Of a DNA stretch of 64,000 bases, positions 1 through 64,000 are shown one piece after another. Where the stretch lies: contig NC_087436.1 in the NCBI RefSeq assembly GCF_036321535.1, positions 62,001 to 126,000 of the forward strand, read 5' to 3'. This DNA is from Camelus dromedarius. Taxonomy: Eukaryota. The notes beneath the pieces are model-generated. The model had not been told where the DNA came from, searched no databases, and saw only the letters and a list, made by a program, of their open reading frames with translations. The position numbers were made by a program, and so were the translations under genes. The first letter of the stretch is position 1; every line of letters begins with the position of its first letter.

Positions 1-2619
1 GTTTTGTTTTTTTTTTTAAGTGCTTGTTTCATTGTGGTGTGAATGAATGTTTAAAATTTCTGGATTTTGATGTTTAGAACATGCTGATTTATCAGAACTG
101 TTAAAAACCTGATTGTTGTTTGGTCCTCGTTTGGTGGGGCAACCTATTGAATTCTGTTGTCTGTTAAAGAGGGAAATTCTTCCTCTAGCCTGTAGATCAT
201 TAAGTGAATGGTTTGCAGTGTGCCTTTAAAATTCTTTGAATGCATTGAGCATGTTTGTCCAGTGAATTTTGAATTGACTCATAGTAATGAATTTGTTTGA
301 TTCTGTGGCTTTTGCTCCTCTCCACATGAATTTGAATTCTCTGTTGCATTTTGTATACGTGTTCTTAACAGGGGAAGAAATTTTGCATTTTTTACATAGG
401 TGGGTTTTCCTATCCCCTCTGAATGCCTTCTGTAATTGATACAGCGAAAATCTGTTATTTCAGTGCTTAATTATTTCATAAACTATTTTTTGGCTTAATC
501 AGAAACAATGACAAAGAATGATAATAAAAAACATGAAAACCTTCCTTCCTTTGAAGAATAGAAATGAGGTGGTCAGGCTCACGCGTGCTTTGTACCTGAC
601 ACCCGTACTTTCATGTCATTGTGTATCATGATTCGGAGATGGAGTTGCTTCAGGTTTGTAGATTTTTGTTTTAACATTTGTGTTGAATTCATTCTCTAGG
701 CTGATGTTTCCTGTTGCGTTTGTGGAAAGTGTAGGTGAAGGGAAACAGATGCTACGTTTTGTATTCAGGAGGCCTGAGTTGCTGAAGAGTATAGAGTAGA
801 GGGTGGGCTGAGGAACAGAGTGACACTCCCTCACCTCCAGGCTGAAATTGATGAACGATGAAATCAATTAGGTGTATCGGTATTTATTTGACCAATAGAA
901 GTCAGAGGGCCCAGACTGTCTAGTTATGCGCAATGGAAAGTACTGAATTCACCTGCAGAATTAGGTGATTTACCAAGTAGAAACAGCTTAGAGCAATCAG
1001 AAAAATCAGTTCTATGATGAGATATAAAAAGAATATAATATCTATTATTTCTGAAACTTTTCTATGTTAAGTTGTGTAGAGCTAAAATTAAGTTCCAAGC
1101 ACCAGGAGTTAAGAGTCTGGGTGGTTCTGTGGGATCGTTATTCAGGGATGTGTCTAGACCCTGCTGGAATGGCCGAAGCTGGCAGGAAAAGACGCAGAGG
1201 CAGGATTTGTCATCCTAGGGTGTCCTCCATAATGGTTCCATGTGATAGCCCATGATTGGGTTAACAAATTTAACAGACACCAGACGCATGTCAACCTTAA
1301 GAAGAAAAAGTGTGCTTAGTAACTGCTTTCAAGCAAGCACCTGTGCATCCTCACTCCTGTCTCCTTGCCATAAAAAGCAGAGACAATGCCTTGCTTGCAT
1401 ATTTGAGGTTTTAGATAGCACTCTGTTCATTGCACAGCAATGACCCAGGCCCTCAGCTATAAATGCTGGGCGTGCGTGCTGTTAGATAGTCTATTATCCC
1501 CAAAACACGGACCTGGCTGGACTGGTGGTCTGCTTTGTAATGAATATCTAAAGAATTTATCTTGTTCCCCTCTCCCCATGACTCCCCTAAAGGTAAACTA
1601 AGCCTTTTTACTCATTGTGGATTCTACAATCTCTGTCTCATCCTGTCTTTCCCCAAGTTCCTGTTTACTATCACACAACTGTTAAAGACTATTTTCTTTG
1701 ATTATACACAATAAATATGGGAGGATTTGAGAGGCTCTTGGAGTTGGCTCCCTACTCCCTCTCGCTTTCTTTCCTTTTTCCACAGTCTTGAGTCATTCAT
1801 TCCATGTCGGTAAGACTTCTGCCAGCCAGAACCCACAGTTCCAGGTGAGAAGGATGCAGACTTTATCTCTCCTACCCGAGGGAGAGAGAGAAGAGAATTG
1901 AGATCTGCTCCCCCGTGGTCCCTTCCTGCCCCAGGGCCACTCCAGTTCACCTGCAGCCTTCTGGCCTCTGCTCTCAGGGCCTCTGTCCCAAGACTGACAT
2001 CAGCCTTTTTTTCCCTTGTCAATATTTCCTGTGCCTTTCAGGAGTTGGTCTCTTCTCTGCAATTCCACCCTGGCAGATGTGATGGTGGTCAGCGTGCTGG
2101 TGGGCAGTCATTTGGGGACTCCCAGGAACCATTCTGATTCTCCTGAGTCTCTCATTCGGGGTTACAAAACTGTCGAGAACCGGAGGAAGCCCATTCACGT
2201 GAGGTCAACACAGTATTACATCACTTTCTTTTTATTTTTGAATTTTCAGTGGAGAAATTATTTGTAACAAACTGTTCCAGATTTTCGGCCGCCTGCTTTC
2301 CTCACCACTATTTCCTTGTTGGCTCTGGTGATTGTTTAAAGAACCAGGTTTCTTCTCTGGTCATTTCTAGCAGCTGGGCTTGCCGAATCCTTGATCTGCA
2401 TTTGAAGCAGAATGCTTCTTCGTGATGTCAAACTGATTTTCCTTGTCATGTCTTAATATTTTGTGTACACTCAGTAACTGTTTCAAGTGAAATGCTCTTG
2501 TCCAATTTCGGTTAACTCACATTTGCTGAACTCCTGCTTTCATGCTGAGGGCAGTTTCTTCTTCCTGTAATAAAATTTAGCAATTTGCATTTACTATGGG
2601 AAGGTACTGGCCCGAGGTG

Positions 2620-3740
2620 CTCTCGTTCTTAACAGTTTTAATAACAATTCACCCATTAAAATGTACAGTGGTTTTTACTCTATGCCCAGAATTGTGCATC
2701 CCATTCAATCTTAGAACATTTTCATCCCCCCAACAGGAAGCTCCTTACGCATAAGCAGACATCCCCATCTTCCCCATCCTCCCACAGCCCCAGGGAGCCA
2801 CTTTTCTCTCTCTGTGGGTTTGCCTCTGCTGGAAATTTCATGTAAATCGAGTTACTTCATGTAAGTGGAAGCATCTATTGTGACTGACTTCTTTCACACT
2901 GAGTAACGTTTTCAATATTTGTCCACGTTGTGGCCTGGGTCAGTACTCAATGCTTTGCTATTGCTGAATAATATTCCTCTGTATGGCTGGGCCCCTCTGT
3001 TTACCCATTCATCACGTGATAGGCATTTGTGTTGTTTCTGCTTTTTGGCTGTGATGAGTAATGGCTCCGTGAATATTCCTGTAGGAGTTTTTATGTGAAC
3101 ATTTGTTTTCAGTTCTCTTACGTGTGTGCCCAGGAAGCAAAATTGCCTGGTTATTCAGAAACCAAATGTTCAACTCTCTAAGGACCTGCCAGGCGTTTTT
3201 CCAAAGTGGCCAGGCTGTGTTACATCCTCACCAGCAACGGCTGCGTCCTCTGCATCTTCTGTGTCCTCATTAGTGCTTTTTACTCTTTTTTTGATTATAA
3301 CCTATTGTAGTGAGTGTGAAGCGGTTTCTCCTAGTGGTTTTGACTTGATTTCCCTTACAGCTAATGATATTGAACATCGTTTCGTTGTGCTTATTGGTCA
3401 TTTGTATATTTTCCTTGATAAATGTTTTTCAGATCCTCTATTCATTTTTTAATTGAGTTGCCTTTTTATTGTTGAGTTGTAGGAGGTTATTTTTGTTTTT
3501 GTTTTGTTTTGTTTTTTTTTTTGGTAGATACAAATTCCTTATCAGATAAATGATTTGAAAAAATTTCTGCTGTGTGTTGTTTTTTCACTTTCTGGATGGT
3601 GTCCTTTGAAGCAATGTTTTAAAATTTGATGAACTCCAATTTATCTCTGTTTTCTTTTTCCTTGTCCTTTTTCCTTATCCTCTGTTTTCTTTTTCCTTGT
3701 CCTTTCCTTCAGTTTACCTTGTCCTTTTGGGGTAATATTT
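2620..3740 (-). mobile_element. Old L1 (L1MB-like) 3' fragment
   Basis: Typical antisense L1M 3' UTR/ORF2-end text (acaattcacccattaaaatgtacagtgg; ttgatttcccttacagctaatgatattgaacatc). Boundaries approximate. Confidence 0.8.
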
Positions 3741-3809
3741 AATATCTGAGGTATTTTATTTAAACTTTTATACATAAAATAACTTAATTATTAGGACAGT
3801 TCTAGGAGA

Positions 3810-3960
3810 CGGGTGCTGTTGTTGTCCCCAGTCTATGGATAGGAGACTGGGTTGCAGAAAATTTCACTGACTTATCAGTGTCAAAGCTACCCAGTGCTTT
3901 GGGAGTTCAGACCCTCATGTTTGTCCCCAGCGTCTGTGCTCTTCACCACCATGCTCCACT
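3810..3960 (-). mobile_element. MIR relic
   Basis: Degenerate MIR core (ccccagtctatggataggagactggg ... ctgtgctcttcaccaccatgc). Confidence 0.55.
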
Positions 3961-6900
3961 CCTTCCTGGAATCGTTAATGAAAAAGTCTTTACTTTTTTG
4001 ATTTCTTGTTAGTTTTTGTTTTTCTCATTGGGGCCTCATCTCCTCATTTTCCTTAAAGAGATCAGTGTAGGTTTATTTTAGGTCTCATGTAGGCAGAAGC
4101 ATTGCTATCAGTTAACTTCTTTATTACTCACTCCCCAGTGATGGCTGTTGCTAATTGACCTAATGAAGTCTTGCTTTAGTCTTTCCTTCTCATGACACTA
4201 ACAACAGAGTCATGACTTACAGAATGCTTAAAGAAGAAAGTACTTGATTGATTTTATTTTGCTACCCAATCAAACCAATCAAATAAGAACCCCAGAGTTG
4301 ACACAGACGGTAAGCCCTCCAGAATAGGGTCACTGTCTTCCTTGTGTTTCATTTGTTTGGTCACAGTGTCTGGATAGTGCCTTGCTGTCCAGCAGTTTTG
4401 TTAGGATACAGTGTTCGTGAATCATTGTAAGGACAGAATTTTGACAACAGACTGTGCTGTTCATTTCACGAGGGAAAAGTTAATATAGAAATACTGCTCA
4501 GATCTATTTTAAAATTAAGCTTGGAATTTTGAGAAGAGTTCAAGAAACCATACAAAGATCTTTTTCACTAATTTTAGATCTATCTTAGACACATTATGGT
4601 TACATAGCAGAGTACCTTATCAAGTAGATTTGACGAGAGGTGTGTATTATTGATTATTTGTTTTAGTTGAAATATTCTACCTGGGATAAAATATTCAGTG
4701 CCCATAAATGAACAAATATGTTTGTATTTCTATGCAACATGGGAGCAGACTTCATATGTTTCTATATAATATATATGACTGTGTGTTTTAATCTGTCTTT
4801 CAGTGTTTTTATAGTTTTTCAGCAATGTTGTAACTTTAGAATTCTTCTAAGAAAATCACCCCAGATTCTAGTGCAGTTTGTACTGTGTATCCTGTCTTAT
4901 GCATGGGATTCCACTGTCCCCACAGGGAGGAATTTCCTCTTATATTGAGTTAGTATCAGAGTTAAAGGAACTGTGATTTCTAGGCCTTTGCTCTCCATGT
5001 GTTTGCATTTGGCTGTCAATCGCGATTTTCCCTTTCTTGAGTTTTCATTGTTCAATTAGAATTTTTGAAAATAACTATTAATATGTTGCATCGATCTCCC
5101 TAGAAACTTGATGTGTTTGTGCTTTTCAGTTTTCAATTTATGAAAAATGTAAATACACACTTGTTTTTAAGTAGTCCTTTTTCACTAGATATTTGGTTAC
5201 CTCTTTATAGTTAAAATATTTTTTCCCAATGTATGAATCAGTGTGCATGTTTTAAAAGATACCTTACTTTTTATTTTTCTTATTGTAACAGTTATATTCA
5301 TTGTAGAGAATTTAGAAAATACGGATAAACACATTAATAACTTAAAATGGCCTCTAATCTCACCTAGACATACAGTTGTAAGGTTTGAAATTGAGAATTA
5401 CAAGTCCTCTCACATTGTTCTTCTTTTTCAAGTACGTTTTGGTTACTGAGACCCTCGAATTCCCATATGAATTGTAGCAGCAGCTAGTCAGTTTCTGCAG
5501 AGGAGACCGCAGGGATTGTGATCGAGACCACGTTGAATATACGGATCGTTCTGGGGAGCACTGCCATTCCAAAAGCGCTGTCTTCTGATCCAGCAATGTG
5601 TGTGGTTTGTCCAGGTATTTAGGTATTGTTTAATTTTTTTTTAACAATGCTTTGAGTTTACAGAGTTATTTTACTTTGTTTTTTTTTTTTGCCTTTATAC
5701 TGAGGACAATTGTGCCAGGTACCGGGATCAGAAGTGTATTTGAGCCCCGCCACTTGCTGCCACCATGGTCACTGCGCTCTTGCTTCACCCGCTCTACAAT
5801 CTTGCACAGAATAGGACCTCAGTAACTCTCTCTCTCGAATGATTATATGCTTGTTGGATGATGCTTGAGAGTCCGTGTGATGATTTTTTTCCCCAGCCTT
5901 TCCCCACTTCTTTACTATGCCCTTTCTCTTCCTTTCCTCCAGCCTGGGTTTCAGTTTACCTGTGGCATTGATTTTTCTTGTCTGTAGACACTTCCTTTCA
6001 CTGGTTCACGATAATTTTACATGTGGGCTGTGGAAACTTGCTAGATGTCAAGAAAGAGCCAATCCATTGCATGCTAGTATTTTTAGAGTGCATTATTGTT
6101 TTATCGATTGAAATTAAATCAGGGTGACCCCCTGAGCCCTCCTGTGAGCTGTTTTTGCCATCCTACAGGTGATAATGCTCTGGCTGCTGAATGTGCCCTT
6201 TCCCCAGACTTGGTTTTGGAGTTAAGTCACCATCAGTGGAGCCCTCTCTTTAAAAGATGAAGAAAACATTTGCTCCTTCTCCCTGGTTGGGGACTTGGAT
6301 GAGATGAGGTAACAGATAAAGAATGGAGCCCCACCTCATTCTAACACCCGCTCGTTCCGTTCCTTTCTCCACGGAAAAAGAGTACAATTCAACACTATAA
6401 AGATTGATTGTGAGCAAATGAGATAGACAGGACAACCGATCATTTATTAAATATACTTTCATGCCAGAAACAAATGTATTATTCACACAAAAAGCACACA
6501 AAGCACGGTAGTACCGTGATTACCAACGTGGGTCCGAGTTCGAGTCCTGCTCTGGAGTGACCAGTCCTGTGAGATGGAGAACTGGTAGGTCGGCTTAGCC
6601 TCTCCCGGGCTTGTTTTCTGTCCTGCAGAGATGGGGCTCGCTAGGCGTCCCTCCCCCATAGAGATGCTGTAGGGTGCAAATGATGCGCATGGGCAGCCCG
6701 AGCATAGCTGCTCATTCCTCGTAAGTGAAGGAGAGCATAGCTTTTGTGGTGAAGGCTTTATAACAGCCCCGTGTGGACTTTCAGTGCTCCGAAGGAATGC
6801 CTTGTGATTTGGAGATGGGATTCTCATTTCTGTAAATACCCAAGGATTGTGTAATTGGGCCCTGCTGATTTGAATCTATTCTTTAGAAAGTACATATTGT

Positions 6901-8098
6901 GGATATATTTTTCAAGCATGCATGCTTTTTTCTTTTATCATTTATTGTTCTACCCTCTCTCTTGGTGGGACTTTTCATGGAATCCAGGAAACAGCCCTAA
7001 GCCACCTGCCTCTTCACACGTCTCCGTGGCGGTTTTCTTCCCTGACTAGAAGAGGGTTCTGCATAGGGAATTTTCTTTGTTCCCCTTTTCTTGGAGTCTC
7101 TCTGTCTGTCTGCCCACCTCTCACCTGTCCAACTGTCCATTTCTCTACCCACTCATTCTTCTGACTTGTTCCAAATAGCATTTCAGGCAGCTTACAGAAG
7201 AACAGATACCAAATAAACAGGTGAGATAATGGGACCAAGTTCAGACAGTGAGGCTAGGAGGCGAGCCTGTGTGAGGGTGGCAGGCATGAGAGACACGCGT
7301 CTGCCCTGTGACTTATAAGATCGACAGCAAGAGTGTGCCTGAGGCTCCCAGCAGACACAGGTTAACAGGGTTTGTGGGAGATGCTCACTGGCTGTGAAAT
7401 AAATAAGTGGCTGAGGAGAAGCCCAGCCTTTCCAGCTACTAAGGCTTAGGAGAATATTTTGAGTGTCTTCAACATCAGAGTATTTCATCTTTTCTTTTGT
7501 CAGAGTTCTACATATAGATGGTTACATTCTGTACCTGGAAATTTCTACAAAATTTCTTCCCACTTGAGTCCCATGACTCGGGAATGGGGTGGTTCTGCTC
7601 ATTGACTGGGGTTGGCCAGAAACCAAAAATGACAGCTTCAAAGGAGCCTGGGATTTGTCAGTTATGTTTTGTCAGTACTGTAGAGTTCAAAAAATGCTTT
7701 CACAGTATCTCTCCATCTGAGGCGGCAGCGTGCTCTCTTACCAGCATCAGGAGCTCAGGGCCATGGGATGGTGGGGGCTGACTGCTTTGCCGTCAAGACA
7801 GCTGAGCTAGTCACTGCAGGTTTGATTCTTTTACGTAAGGCCTTTCATGTTCTTTACTTGAATGTTTCAACAGGGAGTTAATTAACTGAGTTAATTAACA
7901 TTTAATAAATATGATTCTTTGTTGAAAAGACAGTTATAGACAGAATATAAGCTCTGAAGCCTTTAAAAACGGTTTCATTACTGAAATTTCAGTAGGGGAG
8001 ATACACAGTTTATCTTATTTATGCCTGTCTTTTAAAGTAACAAAGAAACAAGACAGAAAAGGCAGAGGATTGTTTCTGTTCTTCCTTTCTGCTTGCAG

Positions 8099-8219
8099 GT
8101 GCCCTCACCTCCAGTAGCATCCATCCAGACACCGGAACTGACACTGGCCGTGCTCCGAACTGCCTCAGCCCTGAAGACACAACTGACAAATAGAAGGGGA
8201 CCACGCCCTGTTACAGCAG
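8099..8219 (+). pseudogene. TRAPPC9: TRAPPC9 pseudo-exon 6, upstream unit
   Basis: Acceptor ttcctttctgcttgcag. Reads [39 protein letters not shown] versus recalled TRAPPC9 [41 protein letters not shown]. TAG at 8191-8193, 1 nt short at the 3' end, GT at 8220-8221. Confidence 0.93.
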
Positions 8220-8499
8220 GTGCTCTCACTTTGTGGATCCTTATGTAACTGAGCGGTGTTAATCAGGATTGCCCGTTCTACATTGTGTGGCGCTGCTGCG
8301 GTGTCTCCTAGTTACTTGTTTCTGTAAGTATTCATGTATTATTCCCCACTGAGTGGTACTACACGTCTAAAAATGCTTTTTTCAGATGAAAAATAATGTG
8401 CATTTAATATAATATGTCTGAAAAAAGGGGCAAAAGATTCTATCCTGGTCCCTCTACTCAGAGATAATAATTAACAATTTAACATTTATTTTCTGTTCT

Positions 8500-10820
8500 T
8501 TTCGTTAGTGTGTATCATCTCTGTCATAAAAACCAGTGAGCACTCTGTCCCTGTTTACTGTTCGGAGACCTCCATTTTCCATTCGGCTTATTACATGTTT
8601 TTCTACAATATTCTATCTCCCCTGGCATGATTTTTAAAGACCAGTGTAGCATTCTGTCTTATGGAGGCATGGTCCATTTTACTTCGGACTTAAATAAACT
8701 TTTAAATTCCAAGTGTACTTAACTGAAATACTGAAAAGAGAACTGTGGTGGTACAGGAAGGCCCCTAACTCCCTTCTCATTATTTCCTGAGAGTAAAAGC
8801 TGTTGAAAATTTGGTATATATATTTCATGACCTTTATGCCTATGAGATACATATATATATACACATATGAGAAATCAATATATAGGTGTGTGTATATATG
8901 CTTTATTTAAAAATGAGACCATACTATATGTTTTTCTGCAGCTCGCTTTATTCACTCAGGGGTATATCATGGACGTCCTCCCACTCCAGACTCACCCGGC
9001 CCTTTCAGATAGATTGGAGGGGTCTCCTGATGTGCGGGTGTCGTCTCTTGTCCACGGAAACATTTGGTGCGAGACTGCTGTGGACAAGGCCCTGGACCAC
9101 GGCGAAACGCCGGCTCCCTCAGCGCCCGCAGCTCGCCTTGATTTACCGCATCATTGTCTTGATGGTGGACAGTTAAGTTTTCTCCATTTTCCACTGTCAG
9201 AAAGAATGTTTGAGTTGCATCCTTCTTGTACAGAACTTCCTGTGATCTTGTATGTGTATTCCTTTAGTTAAGGCTTCTGGAAATTTAGTCCCTGGATGTG
9301 ACATTTACATTCATCACAGACTCCTTTCAAGTGACTAGAAATTCCTTCTCCATTGGGGAATGAAAAAATGCACAATTACTTATGTAACCAATTCTCTATC
9401 GCTGGATATGATTTCACTTCAGTTTTTCTTCCCACCTTTGTAAACAGTGCTGTGTAAATGCCCTGATGGGTACATCTTTTTGGACTGATTTTTTTTTCCT
9501 AAAGGAAACGATTCCTAGAAGTGGAGTTGAGTCAGTGTGTATGTACGTTTTTCAGAGCTTACAAATCCATTGATATGTCATCCTCTGAAAAAGTCGCTCA
9601 TGATTTGTTCTCCCACAGATGGACACTAGCTAGATTATCTTAAAAATATTTGCCAATATGATAAGCAAAAGTGCTTTTTCATTGTTTTTTTTTGCATTTG
9701 ATGACCAGTGAAGTTTTGAGCATTTTTCACTCATTAGTCATTTGACTTTTTTAAAATGAATGATTCCTTTTGTCCTTTGCCCACATTTAAGTGAGGGAGC
9801 TTCTTGTTGCTTTGTGACAGCTTTTTGTATGTTATGAAAATTAACTTCGTGAATTCATCAACATGTATCACAGAGCTTTTTCTTGTCATTTCTTTCCTTT
9901 CATTTTGTTCAGGAAGTTTTCTGATTTTTGTTGTGGCTCAAACTATTCTTAGGATAGTAAATGTCTTCCTTATGGGTTTTATCTTTGACATTATTCTTAG
10001 AAATACTCTCTTATAATGGAATAAATCTCTTCTGTAGGTATTTTTTAATCTCTAAGATGGAGATTATAATAGTACATGTTATAGTGAGGAGAAGTTGAGT
10101 TAATAAGAGCAAAGAGTTGTATTTGCTGTTACTAGTACTTTTTAATATTTACATCGCTATCTGCAATTTATCTTGTGGTCATTATGACAGGAGTAGAATT
10201 TATTCTTTCCAGGTGATTCTCTGTCCCAGGACAATTATCGAATTCATAATTTTCTCTTTGATTTGAAATCCCACCTGTACAAAATACTTACATACACTAG
10301 AGTCTTTTTTGAGCTCATGGTTCCCTTCTGTCAATCTCCTTTCCTTACTCCAGCACCATATCTTACATGTTGTAAAAATTTATTTAATAACTGGCAGTCT
10401 GATTTTTTTTGATTCTTTTCTTCCATCCCAAATTTTCTTGTCAAGTATTATGACTTTATTATTCCTGAAGAATTCCAAAATATTTTGTTCAAGTTAAAAA
10501 AAATCAGATTGGAATTTTCATGGGATTTTTTAGTAAGTTTTGAATTATTCTTAGGAGAACTTACATCTTTACAAAACTGCTTTTCTCCATGCAATATGTT
10601 TATGTCTCTACATTCATACCTCTTACTTTAACCCTCAGTACAGTCCTGAAGTTTCTCCATTTAGAATATGGGCATTATTTTTGAATTTATTCCAGATTAT
10701 TGTTTATGTTTTTGTTAATTTTGTAAGTGAGAATTTTTTGCTATTATATTTTTAAATGTTTAAAACTGACATTTAGAAAGGAAGATTCGGTTTGTCAATA
10801 CTCACTTTGTAACTTGTCAT
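8500..10820 (-). mobile_element. Fragmented ancient L1 (L1ME-like) relics
   Basis: T-rich stretches with degenerate antisense L1 motifs (tttgcatttgatgaccagtgaagttttgagcatttttcac; ggagaacttacatctttacaaaactg). Poorly resolved. Confidence 0.5.
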
Positions 10821-30343: not shown

Positions 30344-30398
30344 ATAAAATAATAATAATAATAAAAATAGTAATAATAAAAATAATAAAAATAATAAA

Positions 30399-31296: not shown

Positions 31297-31333
31297 CTCC
31301 TATATACCTAGCAAGCTGGGCACTGGAACTGAG

Positions 31334-51830: not shown

Positions 51831-53212
51831 AGATGGGCTTTGGGTGTTTAGTGTTATCTGCATCCCTGAATCTTTGTACCTCTGTGCATATTTTAGCCCA
51901 GAAAGGACAGGGAAAAGAGAGTTACACAGATGCTCATAGTCATGTATTGGCCACTGTCCACAGAGAGTGAATCGTGATTGGCGTTATTTGTTTTCCAGGC
52001 AGTAGATCAGTTCTTATAACAGAAATTTAGTCCATTGAGTTAATCTAGAAACCCTTCCTGCTCTGTTTCTGTCCATGCTTGCCATGTGACTGCCTCCCCG
52101 TGATTAGGCCATTGAGAAAATGTACTCATGGTTGAACTCTGATATTTCAGTCTGGTTCATAGTTTCACGTCTTCTGTTACATTAATAAGTTAAGTTTCTG
52201 GTTTTCTTTCATCAGTGTGTCATGAGTTTGGTTAATGTGAAACAAGTCCATGGGAGCCCAGGGGTGATGACGGTATAATTTCTGAGCACGTTGTGGCAAT
52301 TCTACCCTTGCAGACCTGGCGGGAGTATGTCCGCCTTCCTCACTGATTTCCCCCAACAGCAGGGTCCTCTCCCACCCCCGCATGTGAGGCTGGGAGCTCT
52401 CTGAGTAGGCCAGTCAGAGGCCAAGTCCACCAATCAGAAAATGATGAAGTATCTGGAAGTGGTTTTAATAGAAGAAAAGGGTTTCCAGATAGTACAATGG
52501 GCTGTTCGAGTCCGTTTGGTGAAAAGCTGTCCAGTGTCTGTGGTTGAGGTGCTTCTTTGCTGTTGAAAAGCCTGGATTAGATGAAGGGATTTTAAAAAGC
52601 AGAAAGGAGTGATTTCAGGTGGTACGTCCACACCGGTGAGAAGTGATGGATGACCACCTGTGTGAGGCATAGACAGGGTCTTACAAACTTCTTAAAATAA
52701 CTTTAAAAGCTCTTCCATCTGAGTGCATTTCATATGGGGTCCAGTTCTTCACTGGTCACCCTGAGAGGGCAAATAATTGATGATGGCAGAAAGGACACGG
52801 AGGCATCAAAAAGGTCTCAGTCATTTTCCCTTTTTAAAGGATGTGGCAAAGTGTAATATATTTGAGCTGGTTTTTCACTGAACAATTTTTAGTGTTTTCT
52901 GGGACTCCCCAATGCCCCAAGGTTCCATGCAGCTGGGTGTCCCCTCAGAGCATGTCTGTCAGAGCTTGCCCTGGGTTGACGTGGTGTCACGGGGAGCAGG
53001 ACGGTCAGAGTCCCCGGATCTTCCGAGCTCCGTCTCCTCATCCTCAGTGCCGGGTTTCTCATCCGTGTCTACTTAGGGTTGTTGAGAATCACACGTGATG
53101 GTTCAGGTGTGATTTGTGATAGTCTCTGTGATTGGCATATAGTCAATATTTGAAAGAAACACTTTTTTTTTAGTATAATTGTAGCATATAGATTGCAGTG
53201 CTTTTTAGTCTG

Positions 53213-54237: not shown

Positions 54238-56869
54238 GTACATGATCTATGTGCTTAGTTTCTTTGTTTTTTTTTTTTTTTTAAGTGCTTGTTTCATTGT
54301 GGTGTGAATGAATGTTTAAAATTTCTGGATTTTGATCTTTAGAACATGCTGATTTATCAGAGCTGTTAAAAACCTGATTGTTCTTTGGTCCTTGTTTGTT
54401 GGGGCACCCTATTGATTTCTGTTGTCTGTTAAAGCAGGAAATGCTTCCTCTAGCCTGCAGATCATAAAGTGAATGGTTTGCAGTGTGCCTTTAAAATTAT
54501 TTGAATACATTGAGCATGTTTGTCCATTGAATACTGAATTAACTCATTCTGTTGACTTTGCTTTCGTTCTGTGGCTTTTGCACCTCTCCACAAGAATTTG
54601 AATTCTCTGTTGCATTTTGTATACGTGTTCTTAACAGGGGAAGAAATTTTGCATTTTTTACAGAGGTGGCTTTTCCTATCCCCTCTGAATGCCTTCTATA
54701 ATTGATACAATAGTAACCTGTTATTGCAGTGCATAATTCTTTCATAAACTATTTTTTGGCATATTCAGAAACAATGACAAAGAATGATAATAAAAAATAT
54801 GAAAACCTTCCTTCCTTTGAAGAATAGAAATCAGGTGGTCAGGCTCACGCATGCTTTGTGCCTGACACACTTACTCTCATGTCATTGTGTATCATGATTC
54901 GGAGATGGAGTTGCTCCAGGTTTATAGATTTTTGTTTTAACATTTGTGTTGAATTCTTTCTCCAGGCTGATGTTTCCTGTTGGTTTTGTGGAAAGAGTAG
55001 AAGGGAAACAAATCCTTTGTTTTGTTTTCAGGAGGCCTGAGTTGATGAGAAAAGTGTTGAGGGTGGGCTGAGGAAAAGAGTGACACTCCCTCTCCTCCCG
55101 GCTGAAATTGATAAACAAAGAAATCAATTAAGTGTATCGGTATTTGACCAATAGAAGTTAGAGAGCCCAAAATGGCTAGATATTCCCAATGGAAATTACT
55201 GAATTCACCTGCAGAATTATCTGCTTTACCAAGTAGAAGCAACTTAGAGCAATCAGAAAAATCAGTAATATGATGAGATATAAAAGGAATATTATACCTT
55301 TTATTTCTGAAACTTTTCTACGGTAAGTTGTGTAGAGCTAAAATTAAGTTTCAAGCACCAGGAGTTAAGAGTGTGGGTAGTTCTGTAGGATCGTTATTCA
55401 CGGATGTACCTAGACCCTGCTAGAGTGGCTGAAGATGGCAGGAAAAGACCCAGAGGCAGGATTTGTCATCTTAGGGTGTCCTCCATAATGGTTCCATGTG
55501 GGAGCCCATGATTGGTTTAACAAATTGTAACACACTCCAGCCGCCTGTGAACTTTAAGAAGAAAAATATATGCTTAAAAACTGCTTTACAAGCAAGTGCC
55601 TGTACATCCTCACTCCAGTCTCCTTGCATTAAAAAGCAGAGACAATGCTTTGCTTGCATAGTTGAGGTTTTAGATAGCACTCTGCTGGTTGCAAAGCAAG
55701 GACCGAGGCCCTCAGGTATAAACGCTGAGCTTGTGTGCTGTTAGATAGTCTATGATCCACAGAACAAGGACCTGGCTGGTCTGGTGGTCTGCTTTGTAAT
55801 TCACATGTCTAAAAATGTATCTTGTTCCCCTCACTCCATTACTTCCCTAAAGATACACTAATCCTTTGTACTCATTGTGTATTCTACAATCTCTGCTTCA
55901 TACTGTCTTTCCCGAAGTTCCTATTACTATCACACAATTGTTAATGAATTTTTCCTTTGATTATACACAATAAATAAGGGTGCAATTGAGAGGCTTGTGG
56001 AGTTGGCTCCCTACTCCCTCTCGATTTATTGACTTTTTCCACAGAGACTTGAATAATCATTCCATGTCGGTAAGACTTCTGCCAGCCAACCCACAGTTCC
56101 AGGTGAGAAGGATGCAGGTTTACCACTCCTACCCGATGGAGAGAGAGGAGAGAATTGAGATATGCTCCCCCATGGTCGCTTCCTGTCCCACGGCCACTGC
56201 AGTTCACCTGCAGCCTTCTGGCCTCTGCTCTCAGGGCCTCTGTCCCAGGACTGACTGCAGCCTTTTCTTCCCTTGTCAACATTTCCTGTGCCTTTCAGAA
56301 GTTGGTCTCTTCTCTGCAATTCAACCCTGGCAGATGTGATGGTGGTCAGCGTGCTGGTGGGCAGTCCTTTGGGGACTCCCAGGAGACATGCTGATTCTCC
56401 TGAGTCTCTCAATCGGGGTTACAGAACAGTCGAGCACCGAAGGAAGCCCATTCACGTGAGGTCAACAGAGCATTTTATCACTTTCATTTTATTTTTAAAT
56501 TTTCAGTGGAGAAATTATTTGTAGCAAACTGTTCCAGATATTCGGCCGCCTGCTTTCCTCACCACCATTTCCTTGTTGGCTCTGGTGCTTGTTTTAAGAA
56601 CCAGGTTTCTTCTCTGGTCATTTGTAGCAGCTGGGCTTGCTGAATCCTTGATCTGCATTTGAAGAAGAATGCTTCTTCCTGATGTGAAACTGATTTTCCT
56701 ATTTCTGAATATTTCGTGTACACTCAGCAACTGTTTCAAGTGAAATGCTCTTGTCCAATTTTGGTTAACTCACATTTGCTGATCTCCTACTTTCATGCTG
56801 AGGGCAGTTTCTTCTTCCTCTAATAAAAGTTAGCAATTTGCATTTACTAGGGAAGGTACTGGCCCGAGT

Positions 56870-57910
56870 TGCTTTTTTTCTTACCAGTTTTAATACAATT
56901 CACCCATTTAAATATACAGTCGTTTTTACTCTATGCCCAGAATTGTGCATCCCATTTAATCTTAGAATATTTTCATTCCCCCAACAGGAAGCCCCGTATG
57001 CATAAGCAGTCATTCCCATCTTCCCCATCCTCCCCCAGCCCCAAGGAGCCACTCTTCTCTCTCTGTGGATTTGCCTGTGCTGGACATTTCATTTAAATCG
57101 AGTCACTTCATGTAGGTGGAACCGTCTATTGTGACTGACTTATTTAACACTGAGTAACGTTATCAAAGTTTGTCCACGTTGTGGCCTGGGTCAGTACTCT
57201 ATGCTTTGCTATTGCTGACTAATATTCCACTGTATGGCTGGGCCCCACTGTTTACCCATTCATCAGGTGATAGGCAATTGGGTTGTTTCTGCTTTTTGGC
57301 TGTGATGAGTAGTGTCGCCATGAATATTCCTGTAGGAGTTTTTATGTGGACATTTGTTTTCAGTTCTCTTACGTTTGTGCCCAGACAGCAGAATTGCTGG
57401 GTCATTCAGAAACCAAATGTTCAACTCTCTGAGGACCTGCCAGGCTGTTTTCCAAAGTGGCCACGCTGTGTTACGTCCTCACCAGCAAGGGCTGCGCGCT
57501 CCGCTTCCTCTGTGTCCTTATTAGTGCTTGTTACTCTTTTTTTTATTATAACCTATTGTTGTGAGTGTGAAGCGGTTTCTCCTAGTGGGTTTGACTTGAT
57601 TTCCCTTACAGCTAATGATATTGAACATCGTTTCATTGTGCTTATTGGCCATTTGTATATTTTCCTTGAAAAATACCATTTCAGATCCTTTATTCACCTT
57701 TTAATTGAGTTGCCTTTTTATTGTTGATTTGTAGGAGGTACTTTATTTTTTATAGATACAAATTCCTTATCAGATAAATGATTTGAAAAAAATTTCTTCT
57801 GTGTGTTGTTTTTTCACTTTCTGGATGGTGCCCTTTGAAGCAAAGTTTTAAATTTTGATGAACTCCAATTTATCTCTGTTTTCTTTGTTCCTTGTGCTTT
57901 TGGGGTATTA
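56870..57910 (-). mobile_element. Old L1 (L1MB-like) 3' fragment, paralogue of 2620-3740
   Basis: Same element at the same position in copy B. Confidence 0.8.
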
Positions 57911-60900
57911 TTTAAAATCTGAGGTATTTTATTTAAAATTTTATATATAAAATAACTTAATTCGTAGGACCGTTCTAGGAGATGGGTGCGGTTGTTGTCC
58001 CCAGTGTATGGATAGAAGACTGAGATGCAGAAAATTTCTCTGAAATATCAGTTTCACAGCTACCCAGTGCTGTGGGAGTTCAGGCACTCATGTTCGTCCC
58101 AAACATCTGTGATCCTCACCACCATGCTCCACTACTGCCTGGAATCGTTAATGAAAACGTCTTTCCTTTTTTGATTCCTTGTTTGTTTTCTCGGGGACCT
58201 CATCTCCTCATTTTCCTTTCGGATATCAGTATAGATTTATTTTAGGTCTCATGTAGGCAGAAGCATTTCTATCAGTTAACTTCTTTATTACTCACTCTCC
58301 AGTGATGATTGTTGCTAGTTGACCTAATCAAGTCATGCTTAAGTCTTTCCTTCTCATGACACTAAAAACAGTCATGACTTACAGAATGCTAAAAGCAGAA
58401 AGTACTTGATTGATTTTATTTTGCTACCCAATCAAACCAATCAAATAAAAACCCGCTGTTGACACAGATTATAAGCCCTCCAGGTTAGGGTCACTGTCTT
58501 CCTTGTGTTTCATTTATTTGGTCACAGTGTCTGGATAGTGCCTTGCTGTTCAGCAGTTTTGTTAGGAAATGGTGCTCGTGAATCATTGTAAGGACAGAAT
58601 TTTGACAACAGACTGTGTTGTTCATTTCACAAGGGAAAAGATAATATAGAAATACTGCTCAGATCTATTTGAAAATTAAGCTTGGAATTTTGAGAACAAT
58701 TCAAGAAACCATACAAAGATTTTTCACTAATTTTAGATCTATCTTAAACACATTATGGTTACATAGCAGAGTAACTTATCAAGTAGATTTGTCAAGAGGA
58801 GTGTATTATTGATTATTTGTTTTAGTTGAAATATTCTACCTGGGATAAAATATTCAGTGCCCATAAATGAACAAATATGTTTGTATTTCTATGCAACATG
58901 GGAGCAGACTACATATGTTTCAATATAATATATATGACTGTGTGTTTTAATCTGTCTGTCAGTGTTTTTATAGTTTTTCAGCAATGTTGTAACATTAGAA
59001 TTCTAAGAAATTCACTCCCGATACTACTGCAGTTTGTACTGTGTATCCTGTCTTATGTATGGGATTCCACTGTCCCCTAAGTGAGGAATTTCCTCTCCTA
59101 TTGAGTTAGAAGCAGATTTAAAGGAACTGTGATTTCTAGGCCTTTGCTCTCCATGTGTTTGCACTTGGGTGTCAATCACAATTTTCCCTTTCTTGAGTTT
59201 TCATTGTTCAATTAGAATTTTTGAAAATAACTATTAATATGTTTCACTAGTCTCCCTAGAAACTTGATGTTTTTGTGCTTTTCAGTTTTCAATTTATGAA
59301 AATTATAAATGCACACTTGTTTTTAAGTAGTCCTTTTTCACTAGATATTTGTTTACCTCTTTATAGTTAAAATAATTTTTTTCCTAATGAATGAATCACT
59401 GTGCATGTTTTACAAGATATCTTACTTTTTATTTTTCTTATTCTAACAGGTATATTCATTGTACAGAATTTTGAAAATAAGGATAAACCCAGTAATAACT
59501 TAAAAATGGCCTCTAATCTCACCTGGAGATACAGTTGTAAGGTTTGAAATTGAGAATTACAAGTCCTCTCATGTTTTTCTTCTTTTTCAAGTACGTTTTG
59601 GTTACTGAGTCCCTCAAATTCCCATATGAATAGTAGCAGCAGCTAGTCAGTTACTGCAGAGGAGCCCGCTGGGATTGTGATCGAGACCACGTTGAGTATA
59701 CAGATCGCTCTGGGGAGCACTGCCATCCCAAGAGCTCTGTCATCTGATCCAGGAATGTGCGTGGTGTGTCTGTCCAGGTATTTAGGTCTTCTTTAATTTT
59801 TTTCAACCATGCGTAGAGTTTACATAGTATTATTTTACCTTATTTTTTTGCCTTTATACTGAGTACAATTGTGCAAGGTACTAGGATCAGAATTGTATTA
59901 TAGCCCCGCCACTTGCTGCCACCATGGACGCTGCACTCTTGCTTTGCCCTGTGTAAAATCTTGCACAAAATAGGACCTAAGTAACTCTCTCTTGAATGAA
60001 TGATTATATGATTGCTGGATGATGCTGGAGAGTCCTTGTGATGATGTCTTTTTCCCAGACTTTCCCCTCTTCTTAACTATACCTTTTCTCTTCCTTTCCT
60101 CCAACCTGGGTTTCAGCCTGCCTGTGGCATTGATTTTCCCTGAGTGTGGACTCTTCCTTTCACTAGTTCACGATAATGTTTCATGCGGGCTATGAAAACT
60201 TGCTAGATGTCAAGAAATAGCAAATTCACTGCATGCTAGTATTTTTAGTCTGTGGTATTATATTATCCATTGAAATTAAATCAGGCTGACCCCCTGAGCC
60301 CTCCCCTGATCTCTTTTCTCCTTCCTACGGGTGATACTTCTCTGGTTGCTGTCTGTGCCCTTCCCCCAGACTTGGTTTTGGAGTTGAGTAAGTCACCATC
60401 AGTGGAGCTCTCTCTTTAAAGATGAAGAGAACATTTGCTCCTTCTTCCTGGTTGGGGACTGGATGAGATGTGGTAACAGATAAAGAATGGAGCCCCATCT
60501 CATTCTGACCCTCGCTCTTTCCGTTCCTTTCTCCAGGGGAAAAGAGTACAATTCAAAAATATAAAGATTGTGAGCTAATGAGATAGACAAGACAACCGAA
60601 CATTTGTTAAATATCCTTTCATGCCGGACACAAATGTATTATACACACAAAAAGCACACAAATCACGGTAGTACTGCGGTTACAAACGTGGGTCCGAGTT
60701 CGAGTCCTGCTCTGGAGTGACCAGTCCTGTGAGATGGAGAACTGGTAGGTCGGCTTAGCCTCTCCTGGACTTGTTTTCTGTCCTGCAGAGATGGGGCTCG
60801 CTAGGCGTCCCTCTCCCGTAGAGGTGCTGTGGGGTGTAAATGGCGCGCGTCGGCAGCCCGAGCACAGCTGCTCATTCCTCGTAAGGGCAGGATAGCATCG

Positions 60901-62253
60901 CTTTTGCGGTGACAGCTTTATGACCGTCCCGTGTAGACTCTTAGTGCTCCGAAGGGATGCCTTGTGGTTTGGAGATGGGATTCTCACTTCTGTAAATACC
61001 CAAGGATTGTGTTATTGGGCCGTGCTGATTTGAATCTATTCTTTAGAAAGTACATATTGTAGATATATTTTTCAAGCATGCATGCTTTTTTCTTTTATTA
61101 TTTATAGTTCTACCCTCTCATCTCTTGGTGTGACTTTTCATGGAATCCAGGAAACAGTCCTAAGCCACCTGCCTCTTCACACTTCTCCGTGGTGGTTTTC
61201 TTCCCTGACTAGAAGAGGGTTCTGCATAGGAAATTTTCTTTGTTCCCCTTTCCTTGGAGTCACTCTGTCTCCCCAACTCTCACCTGTACATCTGTCCATT
61301 TCTCTACCCACTGATTCTTCTGACTTGTTCCAAAAAGCATTTCAGGCAGCTTACAGAAGAACAGATACCAAATAAACAGGTGAGAAAATGGGGCCAAGTT
61401 CAGACAGTGAGGCTAGGAGGTGAGCCTGTGTGAGAGTTGCAGGCGTGAGACACACGCCTCAGCCCTGTGACTTATAAGATCGACAGCAACAGTGTGCCTG
61501 AGGCTCCCAGCAGACACAGGGAAACAGGGTTTGTGGGAGATGCTCACTGGCTGTGAAATAAATAAGTGGCTTAGGAGATGCCCAGCCTTTCCAGCTACTA
61601 AGGCTTAGGAGAATATTTTGAGTTTCTTCCAAAATCAGAGTATTGCATCTTTTCTTTTTTCAGAGTTCTATGTATAGTTGGTTACATTCTATACCTGGAA
61701 ATTTCTCCAAAACTGCTTCCCACTTGAGTCCCATGGCTCGGGAATGGGGTGGTTCTGCTCATTGACGGGTGTAGGCCAGAAACAGAAAATGACAGCCTCA
61801 AAGGAGCCTGGGATTTCTCAGATATGTTTTGTCAGTGCTGTAGATTTCAGAAAACTCTTTCACCGTTTCTCTCCATCTGAGGTGGCAGCGTGCTCTCTTA
61901 GCAGCATCAGGAGCTCAGGGCCAAGGGATGGTGGGGGCTGACTGCACTGCTATCAAGACAGCTGTGCCAGTCACTGCAGGCGTGGTGATTTTACATAGTG
62001 CATTTCATGTTCTTTAATAGGTTTCAACAGGTAGTTAATTAGCTGAGTTAATTAACATTTAAGAAATATGATGTTTTGTTGAAAAGACAGTTATAGGCAG
62101 AATATAAGTTGTGAACACTTGAAAAACGGTTTCATTACTGAAATTTTAGTAGGGAAGATTTAGTTTATCTTATTTACACCTCTCTTCAAAAGTAACAAAG
62201 AAACAAGACAGAAAAAGCAGAGGATGATTTCTGTTCTTCCTCTCGGCTTGCAG

Positions 62254-62374
62254 GTGCCCTCACCTCCAGTGGCATCCATCCAGACACCAGCACTGACACT
62301 GGCCGTGCTCAGAACTGCCTCAGCCCTGAAGACACAACTGACAAATAGAAGGGGGCTACGCCCTATGACAGCAG
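62254..62374 (+). pseudogene. TRAPPC9: TRAPPC9 pseudo-exon 6, downstream unit
   Basis: Reads [42 protein letters not shown] at 62346-62348; acceptor intact; donor GT changed to AT at 62375. Confidence 0.93.
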
Positions 62375-64000
62375 ATGCTCTCACTTTGTGGGTCCTTATG
62401 TAACTGCGCGGTGTTATTCAGGATCGCCCGTTCTACACTGTGTGACGCTGCTGCCGTGTCTCCTAGTTATTTCTGTAAGTACTAGTGTAATTTTTTCAAT
62501 GTGTGGTACTAGACATCTAAAAATGCTTTTTTCAGATGAAAAATAATGTGTATTTAATATAATAAGTCTGAAAAAAGCGACAAAAGTTTCTATCCTGGTC
62601 CCACTACTCAGAGATAATAATTAACACTTTAACATCTATTTTCTGTTCTTTTCATCAGTGTGTATTACGTCTGTCATAAAAACCAGCGAGCACTCTGTGC
62701 CTCTTTACTGTGTGGAGACCTCCATTTTCCATTCGGCTTATTACACATTTTTCTACACTATTCTCTCTCCCCTGGCATGATTTTTAATGACCAGTATAGC
62801 ATTCTGTCTTGTAGAGGCATCGTCCATTTTACTTCGGACTTAAATAAACTTTTAAATTCCAAGTATATTTAACTGAAATACTGAAAAGAGAACTGTGGTG
62901 GTACCGAAAGGCCCCTACATCCCTTCCCCTTTTTTTCCTGAGAGTAAAAACTGCTGACAATGTGGTGTATATATTTCATGACCTTTATGCCTGTCATATA
63001 TATATACACATACATACATGTATATGAGAAATCTATGTATATGTGTGTGTATATATGCTTTATTGAAAAATAAGGCCATACTATATGTTTTGTGCAGCTC
63101 GGTTTATTCACTGAGGTGTATATCATAGACGTCCTCCCACTCCAGACTCATCCGGTCCTTTCAGATAGAGTAGAGGGGTCTCCTGATGTGCAGTAGATTT
63201 GGTCTCTTGTGTAAGGACACCTTTGGTGGGAGAGTAATGTGGACAAGGCCTTGGACCACGCCAAAACGCCTGCCCCTTAGTGCCCACAGCTCGCCTTGAT
63301 TTACCGCATCATTGTCTTGATGGTGGATACTTAAGTTTTCTCCATTTTCCACTGTCAGAAAGGGTGTTTGACTGGCGTCCTTCTTGTACAAACATTCCTG
63401 TGATCTTGTATGAGTATTCCTTTAGTTAAGGTTTCTGGGAATTTAGTCCCTGGATGTGACAATTACATACATCACAGGATCCTTTCAAGTGACTCTAGAA
63501 ATTCCTTCTCCTGCGGGGAATGAAAAGATGTAGAATAACTTATGTAACCAATTCTCTATCGCTGGATATGATTTCACTTCAGCTTTTCTTCCCACCATTG
63601 TAAAAAGTGCTGTGTAAATGCTCTGATGAGTACATCTTTTTGAACTGATTTTTTTTCTAAACGAAATGATTCCTAAAATGGAGTTCAGTCTGTGTGTACA
63701 CACATTTTTCAGAGTTTACATATCCATTGACACGTCGTCCTCCAAAAAGATCGCTCAGTTTGTTCTCTCAAAGATGGACACTACCTAGAATATTTTTTAA
63801 AAACATTTGCCAATATGATGAGCAAAATTGCTTTTTCATTGTTTTAGTTTGCACTTGATGACCAGTGAGGTATTGAGCATTTTTCACTCATTAGCCATCT
63901 GACTTTTAAAAGGTGAATCATCCCTTTTGTCCTTTGCACACATTTAAGTGAGGGAGCTTCTTGTTGCTTTGTGACAGCTCTTTGTATGTTATGAACATTA

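Follow-up and report, generated by a model that had tools for sequence, protein, structure and literature searches.

The 64,000-nt window analysed here, that is, the whole stretch of DNA, very probably shows a dimer from a segmental-duplication family of camelids, in which a dead copy of the 5′ portion of TRAPPC9 is the repeated module. The family consists of a few hundred copies over most camel chromosomes and is an ordinary kind of feature in a large example. Coordinates given without a contig label refer to the window, and C1 denotes the contig on which it lies.

TRAPPC9-derived pieces in two tandem units

TRAPPC9 pieces were located by tblastn with five full-length mammalian TRAPPC9 proteins, and all of them lay on the plus strand with E-values of 1e-8 to 1e-54, in line with the earlier note, which had recognised TRAPPC9 exons in the window. 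The first unit (unit A) contained a pseudo-exon for aa 296–336 at 8098–8220 (56–59% identity, with an in-frame stop) and another for aa 342–380 at 15011–15127 (82% identity). In the second unit (unit B), a pseudo-exon homologous to the first TRAPPC9 coding exon (aa 1–195) was found at 37219–37781, where aa 1–90 aligned at 68% and aa 94–195 at 50% identity with a frame break, followed by aa 208–242, a part of the aa 196–243 exon, at 46039–46143 (71% identity) and a further aa 296–336 pseudo-exon at 62253–62375 (63% identity, again with an in-frame stop). TRAPPC9 coverage of the unit was limited to aa 1–195, ∼196–244, 296–336 and 342–380, and aa 244–295 gave no match within the unit (best E-value 0.45). 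The single aa 243–300 exon of the true gene (C20:2931922–2932095) lies inside a 3.1-kb stretch that is missing from both units, the deletion site being at 47035–47043 on the plus strand. Six of the seven items in the order proposed earlier (exons 6 and 7, promoter, exons 2, 3, 5 and 6, all on the plus strand) were found in that order; the item that was not found was ‘exon 5’, the aa 243–300 exon having been deleted. The aa 382–452 exon was seen only past unit B (C1:154749–154961), and no TRAPPC9 homology was detected beyond aa 452 in C1:1–256,000. The full TRAPPC9 reading frame of ∼1150 aa was absent, the copies having frame-breaking indels and stops, and the Pfam domain TRAPPC9-Trs120 (PF08626) was matched by none of the 143 plus-strand ORFs of at least 60 aa.

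The intact TRAPPC9 is single and lies on contig C20, with the ancestral locus at C20:2.91–2.95 Mb. Within it, C20:2920148–2920735 is 95–97% identical to TRAPPC9 of other mammals, and a stricter initial scan of the genome gave a TRAPPC9-Trs120 match over the cut-off on C20 only. The promoter, first coding exon, intron and aa 196–243 exon of the window were collinear with this locus at 69–81% DNA identity, and divergence from the true gene was about equal in exon (81.7–84.4% identity) and introns (78–81%). Judged by these alignments, the window pieces derive from TRAPPC9. A partly decayed homologue of the promoter CpG island was found at 31894–33650 on the plus strand, aligning at 69–79% to its C20 counterpart, the CpG island upstream of true TRAPPC9 exon 2. 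This stretch includes the window's single CpG island (32501–33000) and still has 57–63% of its CpGs, with an observed/expected ratio of 0.50 versus 0.74 in the true gene. An insertion of ∼1.5 kb at 35566–37095, common to both units and absent at the true locus, includes a tRNA-like (SINE-type) match on the minus strand (36704–36768).

Self-megablast aligned 1–3671 with 54266–57901 (offset 54,265) and 3717–9843 with 57890–64000 (offset 54,173), both at 89.6% identity. The recurrence of the first 9.8 kb at a distance of 54.2 kb, noticed before, was thereby recovered, 1–9843 of unit A being repeated on the plus strand in unit B at 54266–64000, though with ∼10% divergence and not as near-identical sequence. 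The window holds the 3′ part of unit A (1–30037; whole unit C1:38246–92037, 53.8 kb) and the 5′ part of unit B (30037–64000; whole unit C1:92037–153029, 61.0 kb), both on the plus strand, which are collinear at 87–90% identity and are the sole two units in C1:1–256,000. Their head-to-tail joining, also proposed earlier, was found as an A|B tandem-duplication junction at 30017–30057 (plus strand), where the intron-side end abuts the sequence that lies 5′ of the promoter, possibly with GTT microhomology. The unit starts upstream of the promoter and ends in the intron following the aa 342–380 exon. An inverted-repeat pair of ∼53 bp at the start of unit B (30036–30088 and 30816–30868) forms the inner portion of a more extended inverted repeat, the whole of which is found only on the left side of unit A. 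Homogenisation of neighbouring units was not observed, the identity being 87–90% between A and B versus 98–100% between the window and copies on other contigs, and we read the pair as an old tandem duplication and not as a growing array.

Copy number, dispersal and chromosomal placement

A 41-mer from exon 2 occurred 261 times in the genome (control, 0) in near-equal orientations (140 and 121), and the 100 exact matches listed spanned 42 contigs. A 41-mer across the A|B junction occurred 115 times at up to three mismatches (control, 0), with sequence variants present. There were 115 junctions for 261 exon-2 segments, averaging ∼1.8 units per run, and the runs are therefore mostly dimers. Among the matches listed, the longest head-to-tail run was of three exon-2 segments, seen on C72 and C127 with a spacing of ∼54.2–54.8 kb. 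Copies lay on at least 20 large contigs (17–123 Mb), several of which carried multiple copies, and on many small contigs; all copy counts come from a single assembly, in which haplotype contigs left uncollapsed among the small ones could have raised the numbers. At least 24 full-length copies of 30000–36000 were found at 98–100% identity, and a 5-kb piece of each flank had at least 30 copies at 94–100% identity. Junction and dimer recurred along with both flanks at fixed distances on many contigs, and several copy subfamilies were ∼5–10% apart. As expected of segmental duplications, the family has copies of ≥1 kb with ≥90% identity, both within and between chromosomes and traceable to a unique ancestral locus. 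The high copy number comes from the copying of larger dimer-containing blocks to many chromosomes and not from array growth.

The earlier proposal that the promoter-to-intron-7 segment was amplified as a tandem array was abandoned in view of the intact gene on another contig, C20, the two units in C1:1–256,000 and the predominance of dimers genome-wide. The outcome that would have spoken against that proposal, only two copies in a simple duplication, describes C1:1–256,000 and does not hold genome-wide, where there are 261 exon-2 segments. A long head-to-tail array, in which the 54-kb unit recurs many times beyond the two copies seen and other copies are hidden or collapsed, would be consistent with the head-to-tail junction, with the three-segment runs on C72 and C127 and with the start of C1, where the assembly is unfinished because the contig begins inside the block. 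We nevertheless regard such an array as highly improbable, given that C1:1–256,000 has two units only, which at 87–90% identity are unlike a homogenised array, that the runs average ∼1.8 units, that the orientations are near-equal and that the flanks were copied along with the dimer.

Dimer-containing blocks also showed a palindromic layout. C1:1–2841 matches its reverse complement at 98.5%, and C1 starts 1.4 kb past the palindrome centre, which has no spacer. Among the matches listed, inverted exon-2 pairs ∼87.6 kb apart were seen on six contigs and inverted flank pairs ∼42 kb apart on seven. Copies were mostly close to contig ends, lying within ∼0.4 Mb of one on C1, C3, C4, C19, C20, C23 and C27, and far inside the contig on C9, C13 and C25. 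Telomere repeats were absent from all seven contig ends adjoining copies, and three of the eight opposite ends (C3, C19 and C27) carried 24–45 CCCTAA units in 300 bp. The contig-end position and the absent telomere repeats suggest that the copies may be centromere-proximal, and no centromere marker was found. Short-arm satellite primers (8 of the 26 in a published Table 1) had no site in C1:1–256,000. No second gene fragment was found in the flanks, where 79 ORFs of at least 125 aa gave a single reverse-transcriptase match, and hence no mosaic of duplicons was evident.

The start of C1 so close to a spacer-less palindrome centre, the many copies on small unplaced contigs and the adapter-like 18-mers at 5 of the 15 contig ends inspected could suggest that false duplications, haplotigs or fold-back reads made the repeat and its copies. 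The two units are, however, 10–13% apart and therefore are not haplotypes or mis-joins, the several subfamilies have diverged from one another as well, and copies lie inside 20 of the large contigs. Gene models of the family also come from assemblies of other camelid species, on contigs that differ widely in length, and at least 54% of the sampled words were present in each of 14 DNA-type runs from three organisms. An assembly artefact is extremely improbable on this evidence.

Coding potential, selection and transcription

Of 35 matches to one open copy, 31 were Camelus or Vicugna gene models, from four species and with several isoforms, which agrees with the camelid lineage assigned in the earlier note; the remaining four were true TRAPPC9 at 56–61% identity. 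The aligned camelid models, including two from Vicugna, have the same deletions and out-of-frame stretch, and the true TRAPPC9s formed a clade (100/100) separate from all copies in the tree. The camelid models splice an exon-2-like segment to later pseudo-exons and then to an exon-2-like segment again.

The pseudo-exon at 37219–37781 carries indels of −3, −12/13, −1 and −5 bp, common to all four aligned copies, and a TGA stop, with an additional 1-bp deletion in the window's copy. TAG or TGA was found in 29 of the 39 scored exon-2 copies, 10 being stop-free, and by our count the same TAG is present in 126 of 130 aa 296–336 copies. Some copies have open frames as long as 282–331 aa. In these, as in all other copies, the −1/−5 bp indels displace ∼33 codons from the reading frame. 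Three of the four aligned copies have GA as the donor splice site of the first coding exon.

Among copies, dN/dS was 0.27–0.62 in the TRAPPC9 frame (six pairs) and 0.53–2.1 in the two wrong frames, and a value below 1 in the TRAPPC9 frame would, on its own, suggest constraint. Third positions were G/C in 131 of 156 cases, G/C and CpG sites were the most variable at all codon positions, and the variable fraction of non-CpG G/C sites was 0.11, 0.13 and 0.20 at codon positions 1, 2 and 3, respectively. Splitting the sites by base class caused most of the dN/dS signal to vanish, leaving a small residue. Base composition would largely account for dN/dS, with no convincing selection signal among the copies. 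Six RNA runs, available as contigs that may include DNA or unspliced RNA, contained 24–42% of the sampled words from 32000–41999.

The camelid gene models with their isoforms and splicing, the stop-free copies and long open frames, the lower dN/dS in frame than out of frame, the partly retained CpG island and the RNA runs would all favour a ‘core duplicon’, a lineage-specific family of functional genes or lncRNAs in which useful transcripts, or a short protein resembling the TRAPPC9 N terminus, are made from the retained promoter and selection for them aided the expansion. We consider this unlikely, given the shifted codons in all copies, the stops in most exon-2 copies, the GA donor, the largely compositional origin of the dN/dS signal, the lack of a recognised Pfam domain in any of the ORFs and the possible DNA or unspliced RNA in the RNA runs. 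Similarly, we give little credence to a camelid ‘core duplicon’ in which the CpG-island promoter is active in hundreds of copies across palindromic centromere-proximal blocks, yielding transcripts by read-through, or a short novel protein encoded in the 282–331-aa frames, and in which this activity, not chance, explains the ∼260 copies in camels and alpacas.

Proposed history and comparison with known systems

For a dead TRAPPC9 module spread in dimer-containing blocks, the preferred reading, the comparisons show three steps. A genomic segment that began upstream of the promoter CpG island of TRAPPC9 and reached at least as far as the aa 382–452 exon was copied away from the gene. In this copy the −1 and −5 bp indels broke the reading frame, the 3.1-kb deletion removed one exon and the 1.5-kb insertion was acquired, all before the camel/alpaca split. 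One internal tandem duplication, with one breakpoint on the 5′ side of the promoter and the other in the intron that follows the aa 342–380 exon, then produced the A|B dimer. Larger blocks with the dimer and its flanks, which form the arms of big palindromes, were later copied to most chromosomes, in some cases very recently as judged by the 98–100% identity. We infer that the copies are passengers without a coding role, carried along by duplicative transposition and by exchange between repeat-rich regions that are probably centromere-proximal, and that their partly kept CpG-island promoters and splice sites probably still yield transcripts, which annotation pipelines would convert into ‘TRAPPC9-like’ gene models.

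The family is apparently undescribed, the published traces found being a gene-count table and GWAS labels. The table gives TRAPPC9-like gene-family counts of 0, 4 and 8 in three camel annotations (PMC10568864), and these counts, together with the ‘TRAPPC9-like’ models, reflect assembly completeness and not biology. Dromedary GWAS signals at chr14 ∼31 Mb are labelled TRAPPC9 (PMC10357240, PMC8027435), a GWAS table placing POFUT2, DDX27, ARFGEF1, CSE1L and SUPT20H beside them, and may fall in copies and not in the real gene. At ∼54 kb each, ∼260 copies add up to some 14 Mb, which is ∼0.6% of the assembly. The common indels and the 41-mer across the A|B junction provide ready markers for FISH, ddPCR and cross-species dating. 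Duplication architecture of this type is best known from primates, and camelids gain a concrete, datable case of it that is common to Old and New World camelids.

Human pericentromeric gene-fragment duplicons, such as the NF1 partial pseudogenes and the ABCD1/ALD duplicon, follow a two-step pericentromeric duplication model, in which an intron-containing piece of a single-copy gene enters a repeat-rich acceptor region, decays and spreads between non-homologous chromosomes in larger blocks. The TRAPPC9 family shows this second step and, like the human duplicons, has old parent-copy divergence beside young copy-copy divergence. Human duplicons have a handful to a dozen copies, whereas the 261 exon-2 segments of the camelid family are a far higher number; the latter also has an internal tandem dimer and a palindromic layout, and its site is only presumably centromere-proximal. 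Primate core duplicons (LCR16a/NPIP, NBPF and TBC1D3) similarly consist of one over-represented module in many blocks and chromosomes with a retained promoter, but they encode expressed, fast-evolving proteins under positive selection, while the TRAPPC9 copies are frame-broken throughout and lack a convincing selection signal.

The mouse Sp100-rs (chromosome 1) and R2d2/Cwc22 clusters resemble the TRAPPC9 family in having units of tens to more than 100 kb that carry a host gene, either as a copy or as its 5′ part, and that reached high copy numbers in one lineage. They are, however, copy-number-polymorphic tandem clusters at single loci, whereas TRAPPC9 copies stand in short runs scattered across 20 or more large contigs. 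The macrosatellites D4Z4 and DXZ4 share kilobase-scale units with a CpG-rich promoter-like element, but their units are 3–5 kb long in long homogeneous arrays, in contrast to 54–61 kb, two per run and 87–90% alike. Pseudogene-rich repetitive blocks of the alpaca, involving NEK10-like (19 copies), ATF5, FMN2-like and ABHD17A-like sequences, were reported to be specific to the alpaca and missing from assemblies of camels in a paper whose main text contains no mention of TRAPPC9 (PMC13751797). As described there, these blocks come from the same animal family and likewise consist of dispersed gene fragments in repeat-rich domains, with no simple tandem array and the real gene outside, but the TRAPPC9 family is present in both Camelus and Vicugna and its copy number is an order of magnitude higher.

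Two decayed TRAPPC9 units on C1

In a self-comparison of the window, positions 1-3671 were aligned with 54266-57901 (offset 54,265 bp) and positions 3717-9843 with 57890-64000 (offset 54,173 bp), both collinearly and at 89.6% identity. The recurrence of the window start after ~54.2 kb, as described in the earlier note, is therefore real, with the copies differing at one base in ten. The PF08626 profile matched the genome over its cut-off only once, on C20, the contig with the intact TRAPPC9. Full-length mammalian TRAPPC9 proteins were retrieved by means of this exon, and five of them were used as tblastn queries against the window. The pieces found were all on the plus strand: amino acids (aa) 296-336 at 8098-8220 (56-59% identity), aa342-380 at 15011-15127 (82%), aa1-195 at 37219-37781 (68% and 50%, with a frame break), aa208-242 at 46039-46143 (71%) and a second copy of aa296-336 at 62253-62375 (63%). 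The host stretch of the sole CpG island in the window (32501-33000) aligned at 69-79% identity to the island before the true TRAPPC9.

These matches bore out the assignment to TRAPPC9, and since the tblastn pieces and the CpG-island homology fall in the order that had been listed (exons 6, 7, promoter, 2, 3, 5, 6), the promoter and the pieces stand as described, but no exon was found to separate the aa196-243 piece from the aa296-336 piece. No match to aa244-295 was obtained in the unit (best E 0.45). In the true gene, aa243-300 form a single exon (C20:2931922-2932095), which a comparison with 15.4 kb of the true locus placed in a 3.1-kb stretch missing from both units. Both units also have 1.5 kb of sequence that the true locus lacks (window 35566-37095). 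This insertion closely precedes the first coding pseudo-exon and has a tRNA-like match on the minus strand (window 36704-36768, 29.5 bits) that is probably a SINE. The Rfam scan gave nothing beyond this match, and the Pfam scan of the 143 plus-strand ORFs of at least 60 aa in the window gave no TRAPPC9 match and one sub-threshold match to Toxin_29, taken as chance.

The local analysis covered positions 1-256,000 of C1, the 123-Mb contig of which the window is positions 62001-126000, and found two units only, arranged head to tail: unit A at C1:38246-92037 (53.8 kb) and unit B at C1:92037-153029 (61.0 kb, with ~6.6 kb extra), which are 87-90% identical. At their junction (window ~30037), the intron after the aa342-380 exon is joined to sequence that lies ~1.9 kb 5' of the promoter homology, and GTT microhomology may have mediated the join. 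The aa382-452 exon occurs only once in the analyzed region, beyond unit B (C1:154749-154961); the TRAPPC9 piece first copied therefore exceeded the unit in length, and internal tandem duplication gave rise to the unit. An inverted repeat with arms of ~490 bp and 76% identity lies at the start of unit A (C1:37809-38298 and C1:39026-39477), its inner 48-53 bp being 94-98% identical. The corresponding repeat at the start of unit B (window 30036-30088 and, inverted, 30816-30868) has its left arm cut by the unit start, so that the tandem duplication has its left breakpoint in a hairpin-prone site.

The surroundings of the units were also surveyed. A satellite array of ~8 kb with a 247-bp repeat (also read as a 492-bp dimer; internal likeness 72-77%) begins at ~C1:172,750 and runs through C1:176001-180636, ~20 kb past unit B. 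CpG islands with many long ORFs on both strands, which may or may not be promoters of further gene fragments captured in the blocks, were found in the multi-copy flanks (C1:14501-15500, C1:25001-25500 and C1:246501-247250); ORFs of at least 125 aa in these islands had no Pfam match, and the single match among all 79 flank ORFs of this size was to RVT_1. Within C1:1-256,000 we found no telomere repeats and, allowing up to two mismatches, no site for the eight primers of four short-arm satellites reported in alpaca (PMC13751797). Further copies of the TRAPPC9 sequence were present on C1 at ~0.33-0.36 Mb and at 4.02 Mb.

A dispersed family of dimers

A 41-mer from the exon-2-like segment, the pseudo-exon homologous to the first coding exon, occurred 261 times in the genome with up to three mismatches (140 forward, 121 reverse; reversed control 0), and the 100 exact matches listed were spread over 42 contigs. 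For a 41-mer across the junction of units A and B there were 115 occurrences (60 forward, 55 reverse; control 0), which comprised several sequence variants. One old junction has been copied many times, with ~1.8 units per run on average, and the local tandem array proposed in the earlier note gives way to a dispersed family of old dimers. Among the matches listed, same-strand exon-2 spacings of ~54.2-54.8, ~50.8-50.9 and ~61 kb recurred, and the longest runs contained three units, on C72 and C127.

The copied sequence extends beyond the units. At least 24 full-length copies of window 30000-36000, which spans the junction, were found at 98-100% identity, and 5-kb queries from the two flanks returned at least 30 copies each (C1:20001-25000, 96-100% identity; C1:156001-161000, 94-100%). 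A young LINE behind the many 6-kb matches was considered and set aside, as the window has no ORF of at least 200 aa and the flanks are copied too. The copies divide into subfamilies: the copy on C96 was 95% identical to unit A and 90-92% to unit B, and that on C112 was ~91-92% identical to both. The aa243-300 exon was retained in 18 copies elsewhere, none of which had a stop. At four loci (C37:69597842, C19:40223192, C35:12517116 and C22:8030933) the distance between this exon and a junction variant is 81.4-81.8 kb, and its constancy indicates that a differently built block type also exists, which is probably the older one.

Inverted exon-2 pairs ~87.6 kb apart were found on six contigs and inverted pairs of the inner flank ~42 kb apart on seven, in both cases among the matches listed, and both spacings place the symmetry centre near C1:1,400. 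C1:1-2841 is its own reverse complement at 98.5% identity, so that C1 begins just past the palindrome centre and is unfinished there. Copies were located on twenty contigs of 17-123 Mb: within ~0.4 Mb of the contig end on C1, C3, C4, C19, C20, C23 and C27, from a few to ~14 Mb from the end on C2, C14, C15, C16, C22, C11 and C6, and in the interior of C9, C13, C25, C18 and C37. None of the seven contig ends adjoining copies had telomere repeats, and the far ends of C3, C19 and C27 had 24-45 CCCTAA units per 300 bases; the copy-bearing ends are probably unfinished, centromere-proximal regions. Five of 15 contig ends examined (two of C3, and one each of C20, C2 and C19) had a shared ~18-base sequence at the tip, as such or reverse-complemented. 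On C3 and C19 it immediately follows the telomere repeats on their outer side, and it looks like an adapter remnant in the assembly.

Decay and possible transcription of the copies

TRAPPC9 of other mammals shares 95-97% identity with the true first coding exon (C20:2920148-2920735) and 61-66% with the copies of this exon. Four copies, those of units A and B and one each from C112 and C96, were aligned with the true exon at the DNA level. Deletions of 3, 12-13, 1 and 5 bases were common to all four, those of 1 and 5 bases putting ~33 codons out of frame. The exon-2-like segment of unit A has a TAA stop, that of unit B a TGA stop and an extra 1-base deletion, and three copies of the four have GA as their splice donor. 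More widely, TAG or TGA was found in 29 of 39 scored exon-2 copies and neither in the other 10, and of the 130 aa296-336 pieces scored, 126 had an identical TAG by our count. Divergence from the true gene was about alike in exon DNA (81.7-84.4% identity) and intron DNA (78-81%). Judged from their sequence, the copies are to be regarded as dead.

Nei-Gojobori dN/dS among the four copies was 0.27-0.62 in the TRAPPC9 frame and 0.53-2.1 in the two wrong frames, which on its own would argue for constraint. The third positions of the exon are, however, G or C in 131 of 156 cases, and when sites were split by base class, the variable fraction was similar across codon positions 1, 2 and 3: 0.05, 0.02 and 0.08 for A/T sites, 0.44, 0.67 and 0.50 for CpG sites, and 0.11, 0.13 and 0.20 for other G/C sites. 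We read the low dN/dS as the likely product of decay in a GC3-rich exon, with a weak residue at most.

The pseudo-exons, along with other exon-like parts of the unit, are matched by gene models. Several of these models run from a late pseudo-exon back into an exon-2-like segment, a pattern suggestive of read-through between units. The promoter island retains 57-63% of the parent CpGs, with an observed/expected ratio of 0.50 vs 0.74 in the parent (0.31-0.33 for whole units). Six RNA runs, all kept as contigs, each contained 24-42% of the words sampled from window 32000-41999, and transcription of the copies is plausible. Among the runs were some with the labels reproductive-system metagenome and tick metagenome, and these repeats seem to contribute host nucleic acid to metatranscriptomes. 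An older dromedary 'TRAPPC9' model, P0145, matched the minus strand of the window at 100% over its first 52 residues (52907-53062 and 52318-52410) and exon-2-like sequence on the plus strand over the rest, and probably mixes inverted copies.

Lineage and relation to reported camelid repeats

An open copy had 35 matches in the protein database, 31 of which were 'TRAPPC9-like' or 'uncharacterized' models of Camelus bactrianus, C. ferus, C. dromedarius and Vicugna pacos, located on contigs with a variety of lengths; the remaining four were fragments of true TRAPPC9 (56-61% identity). The deletions and the out-of-frame stretch of the copies were also found in the aligned camelid models, including both from Vicugna, which means that camels and alpacas split after the founding copy had been broken. 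In a tree of exon-2 proteins, the true TRAPPC9s formed a clade with 100/100 support on a branch of 0.32 apart from all copies; the tree gave no resolved order among the subfamilies, which may or may not predate that split.

Two dromedary genome-wide association studies (GWAS) give the label TRAPPC9 to associations at chr14 ~31.08-31.37 Mb, and one table places it beside POFUT2, DDX27, ARFGEF1, CSE1L and SUPT20H (PMC10357240, PMC8027435). The chr14 TRAPPC9 at ~31 Mb may be a duplication block, not the real gene, in which case SNP calls there would be unreliable. Its neighbours in the table map to several different human chromosomes. In searches of the literature on TRAPPC9, camelids and segmental duplication, we found no description of this structure, and no title or abstract on TRAPPC9 and segmental duplication concerned it. 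In alpaca, pseudogene-rich blocks (NEK10-like and others) have been described in a 2026 paper on satellites, according to which they are absent from camel assemblies; TRAPPC9 does not appear in its main text (PMC13751797).

Divergence fell into three tiers, ~20-22% between the parent gene and the copies, ~5-13% between units A and B and between subfamilies, and 0-6% among recent copies. The first of these values might point to an origin of the family before the camelid stem. The family is a segmental duplication and as such a known kind of object, in which the module is unusually abundant and the three-step history clear.
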